Of a stretch of 64,000 nt of DNA, positions 6,573 through 60,377 are shown one piece after another. A program made the translations under genes and the position numbers. Positions within the stretch are counted from its first letter, which is position 1. Each line of letters opens with the position of its first letter. The notes beneath the pieces were generated by a model. That model worked only from the letters and a program-made list of their open reading frames with translations. It did no database searches and was not told the origin of the DNA. Source of the stretch: Negaprion brevirostris (lineage: Eukaryota); contig JARDVH010000073.1 of assembly GCA_030324005.1 (NCBI GenBank), positions 67,763,748-67,827,747 on the forward strand, given 5' to 3'.

Positions 6573-8879
6573 TAAAAAGAAAAAAAACACAAATCTGTTA
6601 TCGTCTGAACTGCCAAATGCTTCTATATTGAACCTGCAGGGAATGATCTTCAGTTTACTGGGGAATATACTGGAACAATTTTACAGTTCTTACTATTTCC
6701 ATCTTTTCGAAAAGTGGATTGAAGGTCACAGGTAACAAGATCAGTTAAATAAAATGGTCATAGGTCATCAGTTGTGTAAAGAATGCAAAAGTCTGTTGTC
6801 TGTTGTGCAAGTACAGCCAGAATGGAAATTTATATTATCTTTGCATTAATATTTAATGTTGGTTGTACTTATCTCACATATCAGGTGTGCTTGCCTTTAC
6901 ATTTGGCACCAGGTGAAAATTTCAGCCATTTATACTTACATTTGTAATTATTAGCCAAACAATGTGCAGATGGAAGAGACTATTAATGATGAGTTTCTTC
7001 TAAATCAGTTATGCGGGGAATTTAGTTTTCCTTATTGATGCCTGCCCAACTTTACAATGGTACATATACAGAACAGGGCTTTGGCAAGGCCGTGGAGATA
7101 AGGAGGGATTCATCTAGATACAGTCACAATATTCTGTTGTTATTTAGTGATGGTCTTTTACAATGTTTTTAACCCAATTCTGGAACATAACTCATTAAAG
7201 ATATTTTTAATAGAATTGATATTCAGCACAAGTGATTTAAAAAAACAATCAGGCAAACAAAGAAAACTGTCTTAAAACCAAAAGCTGAAAGCTCTTTCAA
7301 AATTAGTTGACAACCAAATGACTGCTGGTGAGAACTGAAATAGTAATTTAAATAAATGAAAATGGTTGCAGAAACATTTCTGAATGTAAATCAAAATCTT
7401 TCTGTTTTTCTTTATTCTCTATCCCCTTGATATTGGTACTTCTCTCAATGCTCCCACATGCATTTTCACACTCCCTTTTCTTTTCAACCAGGCAGTCCAG
7501 TATTGCAGGTATCTCATTGCTTTCTTAGGACTGTTCCAGTTCATCCACCAAGATGCCTAGTTAAGTAGGAAGCTAGAAACTGATATTCAGATTAAAGATT
7601 TGATACATCATGAATTTGTTTCAAAGTTGACTTTAAATATCTAGCAGTTGATAACTGCAATGAGCTGATAAATATTTCTCCTTAAGTTCGACCATAGCGC
7701 GTTTGTGTTGATGTTGTTTCCCTACTGATCTTGGTCTGTCCTCATCATGGATGTATCAAGATTAGCTCATCCCTGACCTGTTGCCAGAAGAAATGTCAAA
7801 TATGCCATGTACCTTCCGTTCCTATGTTATAATCATATTTAGTAGTCCTGCATTACGATACCACTTTTTACAGCACAATTTTTGTATGTCAAATATATAG
7901 TAATAAACAGCTGGCCCTGAATTTAAGGCTATAAATTGATCAGCATGTTTTGCTAATGTTCTCAAACCATCTTTCATTAAAGTTATCTTCAGTAACCACT
8001 TGAGTCAATAGCTTTTGCAGCTCATTGTCAGCTCTTCACCACCTATTAATTTCAATTATCTTATTGTTGATCATTGAAGTAAACTAACTTTACAGTTATT
8101 TATTCATTCAGAATACTTTCCAGAAGCTTTCTAGATGACTTGTTTGGTAAAACTAATGTTTTAGTTCAGAGGTTTATGCTAAGTTAGTGAATGGTGCTAG
8201 AGAAATCGGTTGTTGAAGCCTGTGCTACAGTATTCGATACTTCTAAGGAAAGGAAAATCAGGTAATATTTCTGCCTTTTACTCACCAGTGTTTTCTCTTG
8301 GAAAGCATAACTGTGCAGGCATTAGAAACCTACAGACCATGGCTTGACTACAACGCCCTCTATAGTCATTCACTGCCTAGGCTAATGCATAAGGATGCAA
8401 CTTGCTTGGGTCAGTGGTACCTAATGATACTCTATGGAAAGGACTAGAGGTGTAAAATTGGAAAAGAACAATCGTAATCATGTTCAGANNNNNNNNNNCT
8501 GCATCTAAGGTTCTGGTTGAAATTTGTATATTTCAGAAAAATTTGTTTTGCTTTTGAGCAGTGATTTTTTTTTAACTTGTAGATATAACTCCCAGTCGTT
8601 GCAATTCAATCATGCTTAACAGTTTCTGCCAATGAACTTGCATTTGCTATGAAATGAAACCGGATCTGATACAACAGAAACAACTTGCATTCATATATGG
8701 GAAATAGACAACTAATCCATCTGCTGCTGCCAACCTAACCCCTCCCTCCTTGTTACCGTGTGCCTGTATAATGCACAGATCCTGCATCACTTGCGACAGG
8801 TAGCATCAGCAATGTTCAACATTTTTCATGAGGCTAAAGTATTGAATAAACAAGTTTGTTCATGAACATTAATCTCATT

Positions 8880-11865: not shown

Positions 11866-13947
11866 AATAAAACAAGCTCAAACTATTTCACACCATATAG
11901 TTTTTCTGAGAAAGTAGCAACATTTAATTTATCATTTTGCCTTTTCTGTGCAGGGAACACGTGATCTCGGTTTGCAAGTCTAAGGTATGTGTGTCTACTT
12001 CAATAGACATACTGTGCCATTTCTTAATGGGCAGGATAAAATTTCAGCATATCCATGTACCAGATTGGCTGATTAAGTATCCCAACCAGCCTACTTTTTT
12101 TTGCAGCTGATGTGTGCAAGTGGATGGGCTTTTAAATTTTTTTTCATAGCTACTGATGCAGTAACTTAAGCTAACTTATGCGTGGCTGACGCAGGAACCC
12201 TGCAGTTTTGAGAACGTTGATCCCAGCTAAGTACTATTACTCATTATACTTTTTCATCCATGTAGCTAGACCTGCAGCTTGGCCTGTTATTGGTTTTGTA
12301 TTAACATAACTCACTTGCTCTGGTACGTGGTTTTTTCTGACAATCTGTACACAGCTATCCTGGTCAGGAAAGTTTTCACTTAGGGCTTGTATCTAATATG
12401 TTGCACTCTTCAGAAGTTCCCCTTGGGATACTTCCTTGATTAATATTTAATAGCCTGTACATTCTTGATTAACAGTTCAAATGTTGGGAACCCCATTGAT
12501 TCTCATGACAATGCTTTTATAAAATAATCAACTCGTAGTCCTGGAATTCCATTCCACATACATTCCGGGTACTGTTGTCCAATAGACATTATTGACTAGC
12601 CACAAATGTGGCCACACAACTTTGTTCAGCAAAGTGCACTAATTTTAGCATAAAACATCTTTCATTCACACACGCTTTGCAGATGTATATGTACTTAGAA
12701 ACATCTAACTCATTTCAGTAACCAAGGAAGTAAATCACCCACAACAATAAAAAAAATCCACTTTTAGTAATGCCATTTTCCCAACAAATGCTTCTGCAAT
12801 CATTAAGTATTAACATTACGTAACTACTGAGATTACATACCCAAAGACAATGTGGAGCTGTATGTGGCTATTGGCTAATTCTTTCATGGAACGTGGATGC
12901 TGCTGGCTAGGGTTGCCCATCCATAATTTTCCTTGAGATGATGATGGTGAGCCACTTTGTTGAACCCTACCCATGTGGGACCAATATGTTTGATTTAGGC
13001 GTCCTCAATTTAGATAAATGAAAAGACTGGAAGGATCTGGTTCTGCTATGTAATTGCTTTTTGCTGTGGTTACCTGCTGATGGCCCTAATTAACTAGGAA
13101 AATATGTAAAGAATGAAGTCTTGAACAAGGATTGTGGATGATTGCCTTTTGGGCGGAGGGGGGCATGGGGAGAGAGAGGGGTGCACTAGTAAAAGAAGAA
13201 CAAATCTATTTCAAATTAACAATGATGTGCATGGTGTTGGATTTTATTTTGCAATCCTTTCAGTTGGGATCATTTTGATGTTTCTCTCATGTCATTGTAG
13301 TTTTCTAAAAATTAACTACTTACACCCAACTTCAAGCAATTGCTGAAGTCTATTGAGTTTGAACTCTGACAATTAGCTGGAAGATTGCCCAAAGACGTTT
13401 AATTGAGGAGTCCATAAAATTTTTCAGAGCTGGATCAGTACTAGTGCAAGAGTTTATGATTCTGAAAGTAGCCTCCTCTTTACGGTGGTCAGATAACCTG
13501 CTGACGTTGGCTCACGTAAAAAATGCCCACTTGTGAAAATTACAGGTAGTCAGGTGCCTGATGGAACTATATGTCAATCTGAGTCAGTATTTTTTCAAGA
13601 AATGAAGCAGGCTTGGAAGTTATATTGGGTTACGGTGCAGATACGTGTACATTTTAGTCTTGTGCATGTGCATTGAAAGGTATATTTACCCCACTAATAT
13701 TGTACTGGTATTTTACATTCAAAAATGTTACATTTACATGAGCTAGAAATCTGAACCTATCCATTTTACTGGAATGATTATAGAGGATAATGCAACAGTG
13801 ATTCCTTCCAGCATGCCCTCTCCAGAGCATTGAAAATGTGGCTCTATTAATGATCTGTTTTCCATTCTTGCCCTTCTTGGGATTTTTGTTTTAGAAAATA
13901 AAATGTTATTTTTAGAACGTTATTTCTATCTGTTTTTTGATGAGTAA

Positions 13948-14186
13948 TGATGTGGAGATGCCAGCGTTGGACTGGGGTAAACACCGTAAGAAGTCTCACA
14001 ACACCAGGTTAAAGTCCAACAGTTCTATACGGTAGTAAACACCACTACCTTTCAGAACACTGTTCCTTTGTCAGGTGAGTGGAGAACTCTCCACTCACCT
14101 GACAAAGGAACAGCCTTCCGAAAGCTAGTAGCATTTATTACCAAATAAACCTGTTGGACTTCAGCCTGGTGTTGTGAGACTTCTTA
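13948..14186 (+). mobile_element. Palindromic non-autonomous Penelope-derived element with hammerhead-type motifs
   Basis: ~100 bp inverted arms with a perfect 26 bp core (14060-85 / 14088-113). 10 bp TSD tgatgagtaa at 13938-47 and 14187-96. Confidence 0.8.
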
Positions 14187-15164
14187 TGATGAGTAACACA
14201 GCATTGGGCCAATGCCAGAGATGCACCAAGTTCTAATCTGAACCCCCAAACCAGGTTTTAATTACTTTTACAAACTTTTGTGGAGAATCAGTGAATAGCT
14301 TTGCTTTGGTTCGAAGATGGTGTACTCAGCAATGCAAGACTGAGAATTGCTATAGCAGACTCAGTAAGTCAAGTTGATCAAGTTCAGAGTAGTCTAGATT
14401 GTAATTGACCACCCCCAATTAGTACATTAATGAGATCTAGAGGAATAGCCTTGTAATGAGACGACTGAGGTCCCAAGCCCATTCTGCAGCAGGTAGAATA
14501 GTTTTGGATGGACAGGTAGTGGACAGTTTACTAATGATCTGTGCAGTTAAGTTGCATGCTTAAACCAGGAGAAAAATAAGGCATGACAATGAATCAGAAT
14601 TGGTGAAATGTAAAAATGATGCACATATCACTAACATGGACTGGCAGCCAAACTCTGAGTGAGCAGAATTGCATTTGCTCTTTCACTGATCTGTTTCTCA
14701 GCAGGAAACATGACCATCAGTGATAAACATTAGAACTGTCCTATGGTTATTTAGAAAGTCTTGGGTTCTTTCTTTCCAACCCACATCCTAACTCTCTCTC
14801 AAACTTAAAACCTAACTTCCCATAGAGGCATTGAGTAATTTAAGCAGGTTATTTGTTTGCAGACTTAATCACACACTATTCAGTGACACAGCCATTGTTC
14901 TTTACCGCTTTAAGGGATATATTTGCACAGCAAACACAACTCTGAATATACACATTAATTTCTTGTAACTAGAGTTATGCACTCCATAGGTAGAGTGTTG
15001 ATTACATTTTCCAGACTTGGAAATAAATTTTTCTTGCAACAAAACAATGCTTGCAGAGTGAGCAAAAAGGGGTTTGTAAACATTGATTTGTTTGTGAGTT
15101 TTCAAATTTGGGAGATCTCCTTGGTTTTAGAAACATCACACGTGTATATATGAACATACATCTC

Positions 15165-18594: not shown

Positions 18595-18963
18595 TGATGT
18601 GGAGATGCCAGATTGGGGTAGGCACATTAAGAAGCCTCACGATACCAAGTTAAAGTCCAACAGGTTTATTTGGAATCATGAGCTTTCAGAGCTCTGCTCC
18701 TCGTTCATTCACCTGCTGAAGGAGCAGTGCTCTGAAAGCTCATGATTCTGAATAAACCTGTTGGACTTTAACCTGGTGTTNNNNNNNNNNNNNNNNNNNN
18801 NNNNNNNNNNNNNNNNNNNNNNNNNNNNNNNNNNNNNNNNNNNNNNNNNNNNNNNNNNNNNNNNNNNNNNNNNNNNNNNNCTGATGAAGGAGCAGGGCTC
18901 CGAAAGCTCATGATTCTGAATAAACCTGTTGGACTTTAACCTGGTGTTGTGAGACTTGTTACT
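18595..18963 (+). mobile_element. Palindromic Penelope-derived element (same family as 13948) spanning a gap
   Basis: Same tgatgtggagatgcc leader and inverted arms; the right arm appears twice, once on each side of the N gap. Confidence 0.8.
18881..18915 (+). ncRNA. Minimal type I hammerhead ribozyme motif (PLE-type)
   Basis: CUGAUGA-A-GGAGC(AGG)GCUCC-GAAA-GCUC: intact core boxes, 5 bp stem II, palindromic AGCU at helix III. The 5' strand of stem I falls in the gap. Confidence 0.6.
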
Positions 18964-19384
18964 GGGAGTAAACTATGGCATCTTAGATGAGAGGAGGAAT
19001 CAGTGCATCCCTGTCTATCTTTTTGCTTGTTATAGAGCAAAGTTGGTTAGACGGCAACTGTGAATCACATCTACTATGTAGCGGTGATCTTATTAATTTG
19101 CTCATTCAGCTGGAAATGAAATTACAATCTATTCAATCCTCGTTTTGATGAAACTCCTTACTACTAATTTAAGTAGGTTGCCCTTCTTCAAAAATGTTCT
19201 CCACTGATAAAAAAAAAATAACTTCAGCTACTATTGACCAATTAACTGGTGTCAACTTTTGTTACAATTTCTGTCGCCAAATACATAGGATTTTCAAGTA
19301 ATCATTAAAACCTTTTAAATTAAATGCTGTACAGTAATCTTTTACTGGTAAAGAAGGTTTTAAAATACTATACAATAGCAAAAT

Positions 19385-24954: not shown

Positions 24955-25632
24955 GATAGACCGTAGAGCAGTACAGCACAATATAGGCCCTTCGGCCCTC
25001 GATGTTGTGCCAAGCTATGTCTGAACCCAAGATCAAGCTATCCCACTCCCGATCATTCTGGTGTGTTCCATGTGCCTATCCAATAACCGCTTGAAAGTTC
25101 CTGAAGTGTCCGACTCCACTATCACAGCAGGCAGTGGCATTCCATACCCCAACCACTCTCTGATTAACGAATCTACCTCGGACATCCCTCCTATATGTCC
25201 CACCATCAACCTTTATAGTTGTGCCCCCAGTAACAACTACATCCACCCGACGAAAGAGTCTCTGAATGTCCACTCTATCTGTCCCCCTCATCATCTTTAT
25301 AAACTTCTATTAAGTCACCTCTCATCCTCCTCCACTCTAAAGAGAAAAGCCCCAGCTCCCTCAACCTTTCCTCATANNNNNNNNNNNNNNNNNNNNNNNN
25401 NNNNNNNNNNNNNNNNNNNNNNNNNNNNNNNNGCCAGAACTGAACATAATATTCCAAATATGGTCTCACCAATGTCCTGTATAGTTGCAGCATAACTCCA
25501 CGACTCTTAAGCTCAAACCCCTTTTAATAAACACTAACACATTATACGCCTTCTTCACGGCTGTATCCACTTGAGATCTGTGGATATGAACCCCAAGATC
25601 TCTCTGTTCCTCCACATTCCTCAGAACCCTGC
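24955..25632 (-). mobile_element. CR1 LINE 3' fragment
   Basis: [38 protein letters not shown]. Confidence 0.85.
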
Positions 25633-28600
25633 ATAAAGCATTAATAATGTTTTCTCTTCCAGTTCCATGTATAATTTTCAAATTAAATGGCTGTAATATA
25701 AAACTGCATCTGAACTGCCTTGCATTCTTATCTTTAAATTTCTCCAGAAATGTTGATGGATTATGATCAGTGTAAACAATAGTCTCCAATGCATTGCTGG
25801 CAACATAAGCGCTAAAATGTTGCAATGCCAACACCAATTTCAATGTCCTCTTCTCAATGGTCAAGTATTTAATTTGATGACCATTTAGCTTTCTGGTAAA
25901 ATACCCAATAGATCTTTTCTAACCTGTTGTCACCGACCTGTAATAGTACAGTACCAACACCCAAATCTCTTGCATCAGTGGTCACCTTTAAATGGTTTTG
26001 CATAATTCAGTGTTGCCAAAACAGTTGTGGTGGTTAATACAGCTCTCAAATTGTAAAATGCCTTCAGGTTCTCAGCCACTCATTGGAATTTTCTGCACTT
26101 CAGCAGGTCAGTCGGTGGAGCAACTACAATGCTAAAATTTGACATTGCAGTACTCCCCTTTTTGTCCACGGTTTTGGGAACTCCCCAATAACAATAATTT
26201 TCAAAGTCCATAAGGTCATTTGTCCATGTTCAAATGAATGGTTTAGGAACGTGACTTGGGCTTCCACAAATTCGTTCTTAGCCATGTTTACCAGCAAGCC
26301 TGCATCCTGAAGTCAATCGACCAATTCCATTAGATGTTTTAAATGTTCCACCCACATCTGACTAAAAGTCACCAGATCATTTATGTACACTACACGATTA
26401 GTACAGCAATTACCTTATTGGTTAAACTTTGGAATGTGACTGGTGCATTCTTCATTCCAATCAGCATGACTTTAAACTGGTACAGGTCATTTGGTATCAC
26501 AAAAGCTGAAATTTCCTTTGCTTTTTCAAATAAAATATCCTTTAAATAAGTCAAGTTTGGAAAGGAAAGTCATTTGTCCCACCTTCTCTGCGCAATCTTC
26601 CAAATGAGGAATAGGGTATGAATCTGACTTTGTAACTGCATTGACTTTTCTACAGTCAGCACACAATTGTTGGGTATCATCTGGTTTTGGTACCATGACT
26701 ATGGGTGAGCTCCACTTGTTGCAACTCACTTCAATTATGTCATTTTTGAGCATACTACCAATTTCTTTTTGGACCTGTGCCTATTTTAGTGGGTTGTCTA
26801 CATGGATGTTGCTTAATTAGAACAGCATTTCTGACATCCATATCATGCACTACTATTTTAGTATTTCCCAGTTTATTACCTCATATCTCTCCATGAGATT
26901 GTAATAACTCTTCCAGGTCATTTTGATTTTCTGCCAGAAGGTAACTCAATAATTTATTTCAATTTCTGGTAACTTCCTCATTATCCAACCTAATTTGAGG
27001 AATGTTAAATTCAAAATCATCTGGATTTGTTTCTTCACTGGGTTGTAACAACTGTTATATCTTTTGCTTTTCTTCCTTATCAAAATATCATTTGAGCAAA
27101 TTAACATGGCACTGACTTTTCCTTCTATCTGGCATTCTAATCAAAACACTTCAATCAATTATCTTTTGATTTGATCAGGCCCAGTAAACCTTTTTAATGG
27201 TTCACATGCAACTGGTAATAATAATAATACTTCACCCCCAATAGCACAAGTACAATTTTTTGATATCTTGTCTGCTTCTTTGTTTCATTGCATGCTGGTC
27301 AACTCTCCAGACCTAGCTGATCTCTCCCTGAAGTTTGACACACAGTCGAGCAATGTCTCAAAACAATGACTCACCAGTTTTCTTTTGATCAATTGGTCCT
27401 GTTATCTCATCACAAAAAATCAATTCAAGTAGACTTAATTTAGTTGCATCCCTAATTGCCAAAAGTACAAATGAAGTTCCTTTATCCCAATCCTCTGGAT
27501 TATCGTGACTATAGATCTTTAAAGTTTGATGTCACCGTTCCGATGCTTCCTGTGATTCTGGATGGTGTGCAGTTGATTTAAATTGCTTTACTCCAAAGCT
27601 ATCCACAACTTCCCTGAATAACTTTGACATTCAATTTAATCCTTGATCTGATTGGATTTCTGTGGGTAGATTGTATCTAGTAAATAATTTAAGTTGCTCC
27701 TATACAATCCTTTTAGCTGAAATATTATGAAATCGAATGGCCTTCAGAAATCTAGTAGGCACATCCATTATAGTCAACAAATATTGATTCCACTTTTCAT
27801 TGTAAGCAGGGGTCCACACATTCAATTAGGACCTTCGTTAAAGGTCATCAAATGCTGAAAAGGTATTAATGATGCTGGCTTTATTTCCACTTGAATTTTT
27901 CTACTACCTGACGTGTGACAAAAATTTGCTACATCTTTTTGTAGTCCAGGCCAATAAAAATGTTTTGTATTTGTGATTGAGTTTTCTGGCTCCTAAATGA
28001 CAACCTACTTGTACTTCATGTTACCACCTTTCTGCAACTCACCAGTAATACTACTTGATGAACTTCTGCCCATTTTCATCAGCCTGAAAATGTAAAGGTC
28101 TCCATTTCCTCATTACAACATGATTTTTAATGTAATAACACTCCAGTATACACTCAGATTCTTCTTCTATGTATGCTTTCTGATGCATCTGCTTTATCTT
28201 TGCATCTTTATGTTGTAATTCTGCCAACTTTCCTGAGCTAAAAGTATTGGCTTTGTCCACCACTTTCTCAACCATCTGGTCAAAAATGGTTTCTGATAAC
28301 TGAACTTCAGTCTCTTTATCTTTATTCTTTGATTTCTCTTCCCGTCTCAAACTGTGGCTTTGTGATCTTGTTGTAAGACAGGAAATATCCCAGGATATTT
28401 GTCCTTCAACATCTCAGTCGTTTGATTTTCTGTTGGCTTTCCATCACATACAGCATCACTCTGCCCGGTGATCCAACTAGATTGTTATGAAGGATAAATT
28501 GTATTCCCAGAAAAGATCATTTCTCTATTACTCGTACACCACGTTTCATCAGACTCCAACCTCACTGTATATAATGGAACACTATTTCACCATGTTACCT

Positions 28601-28731
28601 CTGGCATAATCCTTCTGAACTACAAATCTCATCTCTCACCATTAAAGATTTGACTTGCTCCCACATCTCTCAAGATTTTAACTTCTTTACCTACTCCTCC
28701 ACGTACACACGAGTAAACTTTACTCACACAA
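25633..28731 (-). mobile_element. Decayed Gmr1-type gypsy LTR retrotransposon, internal pol region (PR-INT-RT-RH)
   Basis: Minus-strand order: KILRDVGASQ (protease, ~28660); HFYWPGLQKDV, YLLTIMD..TRF and EIQSDQG (integrase, ~27400-28050); WSSPIVMVPKPD..RKVNAVTKSDSYPIP and KLDLFKGY (RT, ~26200-26850); TIEK..IVYTDHNP (RNase H). Many frameshifts. Confidence 0.9.
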
Positions 28732-30170
28732 GAGGGCGGCAAATGTTGTGCTATTGTTTAAAAAGGGCTGCAGGGAAAAGTCTGGGAACTACAGGCCAGT
28801 GAGCCTCACATCTGTAGTGGGTAAGTTGTTAGAAGGTATTCTGAGAGATAGGCATTTAGAGAGGCAAGGACTGATTAGGGACAGTCAGCATGGCTTTGTG
28901 AGTGAAAAATCATGTCTCTCAAATTTGATTGAGTTTTTTGAAGGGATAGCCAAGAAGCTAGGTGAGGCCAGTACAGTTGTTGTCTGTGTGGACTTTAGCA
29001 AGGCCTTTGATAAGGTACCGCATGGTAGGTTGTTGCATAAGATTAAATCTCACAAGATCTAGGGTGAGGTAGCCAAATGGATACAAAATTGGCTTGATGA
29101 CAGACAGAGGGTGGTTGTAGATGGTTTTTCAAACCGGAGGCCTGTGACCTGCGGTGTGTCTCAGGGATCAGTATTGGGTCCACTGTTATTTGTCATTTAT
29201 ACTAATGATTTGGATGAGAATTTAGGAGGCATGGTTAGAAATTTGCAGATGACATCAAGATTGGTAGCATAGTGGACAGTGAAGAAGGTTATCTCCAATT
29301 GCAATGAGATCTTGATCAATTGGACCAATGGGCTGTTGAATGGCAGATGGAGTTTAATTTAAATAAATGTGAGTTGATGCACTTTGGTAGATTGAACTAG
29401 GACAGGACTAATTCAGTTAATGATAGGGTGTTCAGGAGAGTTATAGAACAAAGGAATCGGGGTATAGGCTCATAGCTCACTGAAAGTGGAGTCACAGGTG
29501 GACAGGGTGGTGAAGAAGGTATTCAGCATGCTTGGTTTCATTGTTCAGAACTTTGAGTACGGGAGTTGAGACATCTTGTTGAAGTTGTACAAGACATTGG
29601 TAATGCCACTCTTGGAATACGGTGTACAGTTCTGGTCACCCTATTGTAGAAAAGATATTAAACTAGAAAGAGCGCAGAAAAGATTTACTAGGATGCTACC
29701 GGGATTTGATGGTTTGAGTGATAAGAAGAGGCTGGTTAGACTGGGATTTTTTTCTCTGGAGCACAGGAGGCTTAGGGGTGATCTTACAAAAGATCCTATA
29801 TGCCCCTTATTAAAATAATGAGGGACATAGATCTGCTAGACAGTCAATATCTTTTCCCAAAGGCAGGGGAGTCCTAAAATCCCGAGGACATATGTTTAAG
29901 GTGAGAGGGGAGAGATACAAAAGGATCCAGAGGGACAATCTTTTCACATTCAGGATGGTGAGTGTCTGGAACAATCTTCCAGAGGTAATAGTAGAGGTGG
30001 GTAGAATTTTGTCTTTTAAAAAGCATTCAGACATCTGAGTAAAATGGCTATCGAGAGATATGGGTCAAATGCGGACATTTGGGGCTAGCTTAGATGTCAA
30101 ATAAAAAAGAGCGGCATGGGCAAGTTGGGTCAAAGGGCTTGTTTCCATACTGTAATCCTCTATGACTCTT
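28732..30170 (+). mobile_element. CR1/HER1 LINE, RT to 3' end
   Basis: NYRPVSLTSVVGKLLE, DSQHGF, DFSKAFDKVPHGRLL, LYKTLV. Confidence 0.9.
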
Positions 30171-33025: not shown

Positions 33026-33077
33026 CCAAGCAAGTAAATATTCCATCACAATTCTGAACTGTGCCTTTTAAATGGTT

Positions 33078-33358
33078 AACACATTAAGAAGTCTGACAAC
33101 ACCAGGTTTAAGTCGAACGGATTTATGATAGTAGACTCACAAGCTTTCGGGCTTCCTCCTTTCAGCAGGTGAATGGAGCGTTCGGGCTTCAGACAGAGCA
33201 TGTAACAGCACATTCGGTATCTTGTCTGCTTTCTTGCATCTTTGTAAAAACTTGCTGTCTGTGTCAACTTTATCAAATAAATCGGTTAGACTTACTTAAA
33301 CCTGGTGTTGTCAGACTTCTTACTGTGTTTACCCCAGTCCAATGCCGGCATCTCCACA
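33078..33358 (-). mobile_element. Penelope-derived element with inverted terminal arms (third copy of the family)
   Basis: Reverse complement of the atgtggagatgcc leader at the right end; inverted arms taagaagtctgacaacaccaggtt; TSD ttttaaatggtt at 33066-77 and 33359-70. Confidence 0.8.
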
Positions 33359-33609
33359 TTTTAAATGGTTGACAGGCTTTGAGGAGTCAGGAGGTGAGTT
33401 ATTCATTGCAGAATTCCTGGCCTCTGACATCAAAAGTTACTGTAAAAGCTTTAATCATCATGCCATCATTGATGGCAATGTTTGCAGAAATTCCTCTTGT
33501 TAGTTAAATTGTGCACAGCCACTTATGACTGGATATGGCAAGATTACAGAGCTTTGATCTGATCTACTGGTTGTGAAATTGTTGAACTGGCTCTGCTGTT
33601 TAGCATTTG

Positions 33610-55848: not shown

Positions 55849-56256
55849 TGTTAGAAATTTAAGGAAGAGTTAGAATGAAGTTTTAGAAGCATAGAACAAG
55901 AGTAAAAGTTAGAATTAGAAGGCATGTTGGGCACAGCTTGAAATAAGTTGCCTTGCTCTAGCGCCATCTTGGAGTTTTTTTTTCCAGTTCAGGCTGATCA
56001 TTACAGCCAAGCAAAATCCTCACATTTATATTTTCTCAGTTTCCAGTGGACACTAGTCAGGATCAGAAGCATGACTAATCTTCCCCTTTTCTAACTATAG
56101 TATTCCTCTGCTGGCCAGAATGAGGTCAGGCATGACAATTCTGACCAACTCAAGAGAAAACTATGGCAGAAGAGCAAGACATCATCAGCAATTTTCACAA
56201 AGCAATTAATTAATTATTAGTTTTTTATTGAGAATAATCAGCAGGCATGGACTGAC

Positions 56257-56343
56257 CTGATTATGGGTTTGAAGACAACAAGGAAGGCCTTGATGAGTCT
56301 AGTAGGATGGACGATGTACAGAGCCTTTATGTTCTTCTTGTAC
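56257..56343 (-). CDS. ARHGAP1: ARHGAP1-like exon (87 bp), BCH domain
   Basis: aacAG|...|GTcagt. Encodes YKKNIKALYIVHPTRLIKAFLVVFKPIIS. Confidence 0.92.
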
Positions 56344-56954
56344 CTGTTTTGGATGGAAACAGTCCAGTTTTCTGAATACAGTTCACTATGTACTCTTTTC
56401 ACCTTACTGATTTTACAGGGAAGCATTGACAGCTCATCCCTCAAGGTCAACACGAACAATGGTGCTAGTTCTTCCATCACTGGGGAGCGATGAATGATAA
56501 TAAATGTTAATGACAGGCTGAGATCCTTCTGGACTGTTAGTGATGGGGAAGTGATACAGCTCTCCCAGCAGGAAGCTCTTATATACAGTTCACTCAAAGA
56601 CCCACTGCCCGGAATAGTTTGGAAATGCCAAAGATCTTCAGTTTACTTTTGGATACCCTAATATTTGGTTTACTAAAACTCCATGCATTTGTGAATATCC
56701 CATGAGATTGGAATTGGTGAAGGTTACACCATTTTTTAAAAAAGGAGGAATAGAGAAAACAAAGAACCCTGACCTAAACACCGCTCACCCCCCAACCACC
56801 CCCAATGGCCGCCTATATTCATGGAGACTTAAAATGTATGCATTTTCCTGTTACAGTAAGTATAACGAAACAGCAAATCACAGAAGAATAGGGGAGAACC
56901 AATTTCACATGACTGAAATATACAAAAGCCTAACCAAGGCACAGACACACTTAC

Positions 56955-58854: not shown

Positions 58855-60377
58855 ATAGATAAATTGCTGGGACTGGATGGGATGTATCCCAGGTTACTGT
58901 GGGAGGCCAGGGAAGAGATTGCAGAACCTCTGGTGATGATATTTGCATCGTCAATGGAGACGGGAGAGATTCCGGAGGATCGCAGACGTGGTCCCTATAT
59001 TCAAGAAAGTGAATAGGGATAGCCCAGGAAATTACCGACCGGTGAGTCTAACCTCAGTGGTTGGTAAGTTGATGGAGAATATTCTGGGGGACAGGATTTA
59101 TGAACATTTAGGGAATTTTAGTATGCTCAATAGTAGTCAGCACAGTTTTTTCAAAGGCAGGTCGTGCCTTATGAGCCTGGTTGAGTTCTTTGAAATTGTG
59201 ACTAAATACATTGACGAAGGAAGAGCAGTAGATGTGATTTATATGGACTTCAGCAAGGCATTCGATAAGGTCCCCGTGCAAGACTTCTTGAGAAAGAGAG
59301 AGGGAATGGAATCCAAGGGGCTGTTGCATTGTGGATCCAGAACTGGCTTGCCTGCAGAAGGCAGAGAGTGGTTGTAGGTGGGTCTTTTTCTGCATGGAGG
59401 TTGGTCACCAGTGGATGCCCCAGCGATCTGTTCTGAAACCCCTGCTGTTTGTAATTTTCATAAATGACCTGGATGAGGAAGTGGAGGGATGGGTTGGTAA
59501 GTTTTCTGACGACACGAAGATTGGTGGTGTTGTGGATAGTTTGGAGGGATGTCAGAAGTTGTTGCGTGTTTGCAGTGTGACATAGATAGGATGCAAGGCT
59601 GGGTGGAGAAGTGGCTGGTGGACTTCAACCTGGATAAACGTGTAGTGGTCCATTTTGGCAGGTCAAATGGGATGAAGAAGTATAATATCAAGGGTAAGAC
59701 TCTTAGAGGTGCAGAGGATCAGAAGGACCTTGGGGTCCGGGTCCATAGGACTCTCAAATTGGCCTCGCAGGTAGAGGATGTGGTTAAGAAGGCGTATGGT
59801 GTACTAGCCTTCATCAATCGAGGGACTGAGGTTTAGGAATCAGGAGATAATGCTGCAGCTTTATAAGACCCTAGTCAGACCTCTCTTGGAATACTGTGCT
59901 AAGTTCTGGTTGCGTCATTACAGGAAGAATGTCGCTTGGGGGTGCAGATTGAGTTGTANNNNNNNNNNNNNNNNNNNNNNNNNNNNNNNNNNNNNNNNNN
60001 NNNNNNNNNNNNNNNNNNNNNNNNNNNNNNNNNNNNNNNNNNNNNNNNNNNNNNNNNNNNNNNNNNNNNNNNNNNNNNNNNNNNNNNNNNNNNNNNNNNN
60101 NNNNNNNNNNNNNNNNNNNNNNNNNNNNNNNNNNNNNNNNNNNNNNNNNNNNNNNNNNNNNNNNNNNNNNNNNNNNNNNNNNNNNNNNNNNNNNNNNNNN
60201 NNNNNNNNNNNNNNNNNNNNNNNNNNNNNNNNNNATTTGATAGGGTCTTTCAAAAGACTTCTGGATGAGTACATGGGACTTAATAGGGTTATAGGTAAGC
60301 CTAGTAGGTATGGATATCATTGGCGCAACTTGTGGGCCGAAAGGCCTGTTTGTGCTGTATTTTTTCTATGTTCTATG
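58855..60377 (+). mobile_element. CR1/HER1 LINE, RT to 3' end (antisense in ARHGAP intron)
   Basis: PGNYRPVSLTSVVGKL, DVIYMDFSKAFDKVP, FINDLD, FSDDTK; tail ttctatgttctatg. Confidence 0.9.

Follow-up and report, generated by a model that had tools for sequence, protein, structure and literature searches.

A probable inverted insertion of a Penelope-like element behind a hammerhead-bearing fold-back in Negaprion brevirostris

A fold-back element of about 240 bp with a hammerhead-type motif on each strand lies at positions 13938–14196 of a 64,000-nucleotide stretch of the Negaprion brevirostris genome (the window). The locus raises the question of whether such a compact palindrome travels as a unit or is made anew at each insertion of a larger element. 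A preliminary description of the sequence favoured the former, proposing a retrozyme-like miniature, non-autonomous and mobile as one unit, with its own target-site duplication (TSD), three copies in the window and a link to Penelope-like elements (PLEs).

Architecture of the fold-back element

The exact 10-bp TSD reported for the element is confirmed: TGATGAGTAA is found on the + strand at 13938–13947 and again at 14187–14196, bracketing 13948–14186. The inverted arms of ~100 bp are equally real, with 13987–14085 pairing to 14088–14186 as one long fold-back of ~200 bp, and the predicted fold of the − strand reaches −163.2 kcal/mol compared with −66.9 ± 4.7 for 200 shuffles (z −20.4). The segment between the left TSD and the arms had been taken for a 40 bp leader; the segment stands, but it is a PLE tail of ~39 nt on the − strand (13948–13986), and its outer end is the A of the ATG of the parent open reading frame (ORF). 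This assignment draws on family copies that continue into the ORF N-terminus and on the PLE tail as described in PMC11167929 and in the available part of PMC8557442. The adjoining tailed arm (13987–14085, − strand) appears in the family alignment as a 5'-truncated copy of the parent terminal repeat, and together with its tail it is identical to the family majority at 126 of 135 nt. The other arm (14083–14186, + strand) is tail-less, with an outer end that belongs to the internal end class of the family, at unit position 96. The two arms meet in a head-to-head junction at 14083–14090, where a 3-nt overlap, AGA (14083–14085), fits both of them next to a 2-nt loop.

Each arm carries a decayed minimal type I hammerhead. 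On the + strand, the layout CAC-CTGACAA-A-GGAA(CAGCC)TTCC-GAAA-GC-TA-GTA is read at 14096–14130 as described, with a predicted cleavage site after 14127, and the mirror motif occupies 14043–14077, running from 14077 to 14043 on the − strand. The G8 to A change, previously thought to be the only departure from the core, is present in both arms (14104 on the + strand, 14069 on the − strand), but each arm has one further lesion, a stem I G to A at 14130 and a stem III C to G at 14048; at both of these positions, the contig majority in four public runs has the intact base.

The loose-end peaks listed for each of the four public runs include the element boundaries 13947/13948, 13986 and 14186, and no empty-site allele is found among the joints listed for these runs. 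In three other runs, two of them labelled as other organisms, contigs cross from the flanks into the element, and the flanks differ by a few percent, suggesting that the insertion is old and shared. In the single-copy flank 13400–13900, 11–13 letters differ per ~570 in contigs of other runs, and four frames of this flank have no Pfam match. Pfam on 32 frames identified no host gene near the element. A frame at 56241–56642 (− strand), ~42 kb away, has a CRAL_TRIO_2 match (E 7e-06) that suggests a host exon, and remnants of LTR-type RT-RNase H and other reverse transcriptases (RTs) are found at 25469–25918 (−), 28682–29059 (+) and 58940–59374 (+).

The two further copies noted in the window are indeed related loci; their arm lengths and centres are different, however, so that they are not copies of one unit. 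At 18595–18964, family alignment delimits a second inverted insertion, of another subfamily, with a shorter tailed arm and an N gap inside. The third, at 33074–33359, has its tail on the right, a 12-bp exact TSD and, in its centre, a piece of the 5' end of the parent ORF in antisense (33195–33275). Pieces of the ORF start also lie between the arms in L124, L125, L128, L131 and L135, and such rearranged centres suggest template jumps on tandem RNA.

The parent element and its hammerhead

The parent was found by walking upstream from longer copies. Beyond a 3' UTR, the walk enters an ORF at its C-terminus, which has a CX4CxxC linker and a GIY-YIG-type core with two cysteines, and then reaches RT motifs; at locus L119, a 407-aa open frame has RT motifs running into the nuclease part. 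Pfam assigns RVT_1 to the L119 frame with an E-value of 8.6e-05, under the curated gathering cut-off, and gives no GIY-YIG match in the parent frames and no match at all for two L079 frames. The nuclease alignment reads VVYLIxCRKGCPEAWYIGET, preceded by the linker CHSNLCKTC, and Atlas grouped the nuclease part with GIY-YIG clusters (0.96); a PDB sequence search with the parent protein returned no match. Downstream, the terminal repeat passes straight into the ATG and the N-terminus of the ORF, in the head-to-tail pLTR arrangement, so that the supposed leader proves to be a 3' tail, which stops at the start codon of the tandem unit that follows. Judged by its sequence, with RT, GIY-YIG nuclease, pLTR and hammerhead all present, the parent is an autonomous, endonuclease-bearing (EN+) PLE, which upholds the PLE link of the preliminary description and supplies the autonomous partner that it called for, abundant, with matching terminal repeats and with RT plus a C-terminal GIY-YIG. 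A CX2-5CxxC linker before the nuclease defines the Neptune/Nematis clade in the accessible text of PMC8557442; CHSNLCKTC agrees with it, and by these motif definitions the parent would be of the Neptune/Nematis type.

The hammerhead itself is to be regarded as genuine in the family, on the evidence of an excess of intact motifs, covariation in stem II and a base 17 that is rarely G. Intact minimal type I motifs number eight in 913.7 kb compared with 0–1 in five Markov controls; stem II varies in sequence across the family and retains its pairing; and base 17, in arms reading GAAAGCT-N, is A, T or C in 60 and G in two. The CUGANGA core that a family consensus was expected to have is borne out, as CTGACGA or CTGATGA, in 50 of 85 family arms, and another 15 of the 85 read CTGACAA, which would fit CpG decay. 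Differences in stem II and in the cleavage base (A, T or C) separate at least four subfamilies while pairing is kept, which we take to indicate selection acting on the ribozyme of the source elements. Both hammerheads of the 13938–14196 copy are very likely silent, since both have CTGACAA as their core, a second, private lesion is present in each arm and the hairpin is the predicted fold of any read-through RNA. Taken in isolation, the two motifs fold no better than shuffles (z 0.8 and −1.45). The suggested Rfam scan gave no support either: the element has only generic hairpin (miRNA) matches below gathering score and none to the hammerhead models at E up to 10.

Ends, arms and centres across the family

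In the 2.69-Gb genome, 4,464 first-look candidates were obtained and 40 were scored; the best 30 of these 40, selected by likeness to the query element, have both outer ends in common and differ in their centres. A sample of 1,064 kb (913.7 kb non-N), with the window included and positions chosen regardless of repeat, holds 47 loci, or about one per 19 kb. Twenty-six of them are outward-facing inverted pairs, and the remainder are single, tandem or gap-cut. Extrapolation from these 47 loci in 914 kb gives a family of ~10^5 loci in the genome, about half of them inverted pairs. Many family copies adjoin or hold N gaps (L031–L195 sample, L071–L120), and the assembly probably under-represents long palindromes.

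The constant boundaries expected of the family exist at the outer ends, which fall into two fixed classes with frequent TSDs, but not at the centres. The 73 arm ends clear of gaps comprise 39 at unit position 125 or beyond, 27 at 93–110 and seven below 93, and the interval 111–124 is empty. An exact flanking repeat of at least 8 nt occurs in 27 of 40 testable copies, as against 15 of 1560 mismatched flank pairs, and TSD lengths range from 8 to 15 nt. Target microhomology, which by eye seemed to be present at the internal end, was considered as a source of these ends and rejected: at the internal end of 27 copies, mean ambiguity is 1.11, compared with 1.09 ± 0.28 in simulations without homology, and at the tail end the mean of 2.3 is driven by two outliers, the 5-base match being 1.81 vs 1.53 ± 0.18. 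A template cut at the hammerhead was likewise set aside, as arms often read through the cleavage site with no pile-up evident by eye.

The two end classes are paired within insertions. One tailed and one tail-less arm are found in 20 of 21 clear inverted pairs, one pair is without a tail and two-tail pairs do not occur (P 4.3e-5); the test drops five of the 26 pairs, namely the window copy and four with ends touching N gaps that could hide a tail. Keeping two gap-cut arms, the one-tail pattern holds in 22 of 23 pairs. Pairs of two tail-less arms do exist (CONT 182162, L080 and probably L091), and tail-less arms are also found alone, without a partner. Insertions of 65–80 bp that lack a hammerhead (L054:3985–4063; L070:7644–7709; the B161 block of L165, at about 8610–8675) still combine a tailed with a tail-less arm and have a TSD.

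The two arms of one copy have 152 of 338 non-majority alleles in common, against 17% (maximum 23%) when shuffled, and they should thus derive from one source or have undergone later conversion between arms. Arm lengths in the family run from ~25 bp to more than 1 kb. Extension into the parent is greater for the tail-less arm in 11 of 22 pairs, greater for the tailed arm in six and equal in five, with arm starts being noisy where subfamily indels break the alignment. Long arms are tail-less in 22 of 32 and in six of six classified cases, with P only 0.05 and 0.03 and in sets picked by upstream queries, and the tail-less arm is the longer one in the gap-free long copies L078 and L098. Near-equal arms, within 10 nt, make up nine of the 22 pairs compared with 3.3 expected (P 0.002).

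The centres bear most directly on whether the element moves as a unit. A 240-bp palindromic miniature, retrozyme-like or MITE-like, transcribed or excised, could account for the at least 30 near full-length look-alikes that have the same outer ends and TSDs, and for the ten loci with the exact centre of the 13938–14196 copy. The look-alikes, however, were chosen by query similarity, and their centres still differ; none of the 25 other sampled pairs has this centre. Genome-wide, the 20-mer spanning it occurs 10 times, compared with 1,226 occurrences of the uninterrupted parent 20-mer at the same point, and the ten matches belong to at least three subfamilies, with the tail on the left in four, on the right in two and unclear in the others. 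An internal structure kept constant by descent, the mark of a unit element, is thus not what was found. An exact centre that is rare, occurs in several subfamilies and appears in both polarities argues for fold-backs made anew at insertion, and the junction of the 13938–14196 copy recurs independently, with the 3-nt pairing of AGA and TCT as the probable cause. The TSD, once cited as a sign of unit mobilisation, marks one insertion event rather than a unit-length master. Its length of 8–15 nt, together with a 39-nt tail at one end only, is unlike the fixed TSD and symmetric terminal inverted repeats of a DNA-transposon MITE, a match that would have counted against the preliminary description. 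The two hammerheads lie on opposite strands of a single insertion, so that one RNA cannot be excised between them, unlike the head-to-tail, same-strand hammerheads of retrozymes. For this copy, a miniature moving as a unit is largely refuted and highly improbable.

Origin of the inverted form and relation to known systems

We consider it probable that an EN+ PLE gave rise to 13938–14196 as an inverted insertion with extreme 5' truncation, likely formed in one on-site event in which both nicked target strands primed reverse transcription. In a scheme whose steps are all inferred from old copies, staggered nicks 8–15 nt apart would provide two 3' ends, one of which would start its cDNA at the far end of the tail and the other at an internal site just before the tail. 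Both cDNAs would copy uncleaved RNA of one source and stop early, in this copy just past the hammerhead, and their ends would be joined head to head by a few complementary bases, here AGA/TCT at 14083–14085. The inserted copy would afterwards have decayed, leaving hammerheads that are predicted to be inactive and locked in the hairpin. In vitro, the protein of an Anolis PLE cuts both strands and extends each of them; reverse transcription begins at two sites, one on either side of the tail, and uncleaved RNA is the preferred template. Both strands are alike in start site in that assay (PMC11167929), which does not therefore explain the one-tail rule. The more general proposition, that double priming is built into PLEs, with each nicked strand assigned to one RT start site beside the tail on the same stretch of one RNA, seems to us evenly balanced.

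Alternatively, in a de novo truncated insertion, the second arm could have been made when synthesis primed itself or folded back at a small palindrome, with central deletions reshaping the arms later; a first strand or antisense RNA copied back on itself has been proposed for rotifer Penelope (PMC3846280, in the part available). The excess of near-symmetric centres (9/22 vs 3.3) would agree with such copying, as would the alleles common to both arms, the several junctions that lie, by eye, at short self-complementary words of the element, and the single tail per insert if copying halts at the tail. A fold-back copy of the tailed strand, however, cannot extend 5' past its template, yet the tail-less arm is longer in 11 of the 22 pairs and in L078 and L098, and lone tail-less arms imply that the internal site acts as an independent start point. 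Together with the one-tail pairing and the alleles common to both arms, the longer tail-less arm favours priming from both nicked strands without proving it, and self-priming, while conceivable, is rather unlikely. The same data also carry points against priming from both strands: near-equal arms in excess fit fold-back synthesis or later central deletion as well, later deletions in palindromes could give either arm asymmetry, and allele sharing could come from later conversion. Two independent events, in which the first insertion was hit by another or was later duplicated in inverted orientation, are very unlikely. PLE endonucleases can target their own repeat (PMC11167929) and partial tandems occur at L081, L123 and L131, but 27 of 40 testable copies have both arms enclosed by one TSD, the arms are subfamily-matched and two-tail pairs are absent.

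The locus itself is ordinary, one of ~10^5 decayed PLE stubs and an insertion of a known kind, since TSD-flanked, inverted pLTRs that carry the tail at only one end have already been published (PMC3846280 and PMC8557442, each in its accessible portion). In the literature searched, whose coverage was incomplete, we found no PLE study that puts numbers on a one-tail rule or invokes double priming, and the origin of tandem and inverted PLE structures is called undefined in the consulted part of PMC8557442. The locus offers a statistical handle on that origin. If built-in double priming holds true, it would give the rule of one tail per insert and explain head-to-head PLEs without antisense self-priming, and a family on the order of 100,000 loci, about half of them inverted pairs, would be its natural read-out. 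The one-tail rule, the subfamily-matched arms and the longer tail-less arms translate into specific predictions for the in vitro assay already available for PLEs. For annotators, PLE stubs mimic MITEs, retrozymes and miRNA hairpins, and many lie at assembly gaps.

The closest published structures are Pen2a_Av and Pen2_Av (PMC3846280, PMC8557442), which, in the sections available, have head-to-head inverted terminal repeats with a palindromic junction, a tail of 30–40 bp at one end only that extends to the ORF start region, and a TSD of 8–10 bp. Unlike them, the shark element has no body, and the inverted form predominates in its family, at 26 of 47 sampled loci. With the minimal hammerheads of metazoan PLEs, as given in the accessible part of PMC4209133, the shark motif shares an extra base after A9, a G-C at the base of stem II, palindromic positions 15.2–16.2 and a short stem I; it differs in the 13938–14196 copy by a broken C3-A8 pair in place of the covariant U3-A8, and by further lesions. 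The same text ascribes opposite-strand hammerhead pairs 100–700 bp apart to truncated PLEs. Poseidon_Ac in vitro (PMC11167929) is similar in having two RT start sites that flank the tail, extension of both strands, use of uncleaved RNA and no homology to the target, but it belongs to another clade and its ORF starts inside the hammerhead, whereas the shark parent ORF starts ~100 nt downstream, at the tail end; the pairing of one tail per genomic insert is not among the measurements in the portion of PMC11167929 at hand. In L1 twin priming, as far as the available text of PMC2912911 describes it, both target ends likewise prime, the cDNAs anneal at short complementarity and the TSD is kept. The internal priming site of L1 is described as set by annealing to the target, while that of the shark PLE is nearly fixed and has no excess microhomology, and the two shark cDNAs, unlike those of L1, would copy the same stretch and so give a palindrome. 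Non-LTR retrozymes (PMC7229834 and bioRxiv 10.64898/2026.07.22.740005, both in part) resemble the element in their type I hammerhead, non-coding nature and relation to PLEs; they form head-to-tail tandems with same-strand ribozymes and circular RNA, whereas 13938–14196 is a single head-to-head insertion.
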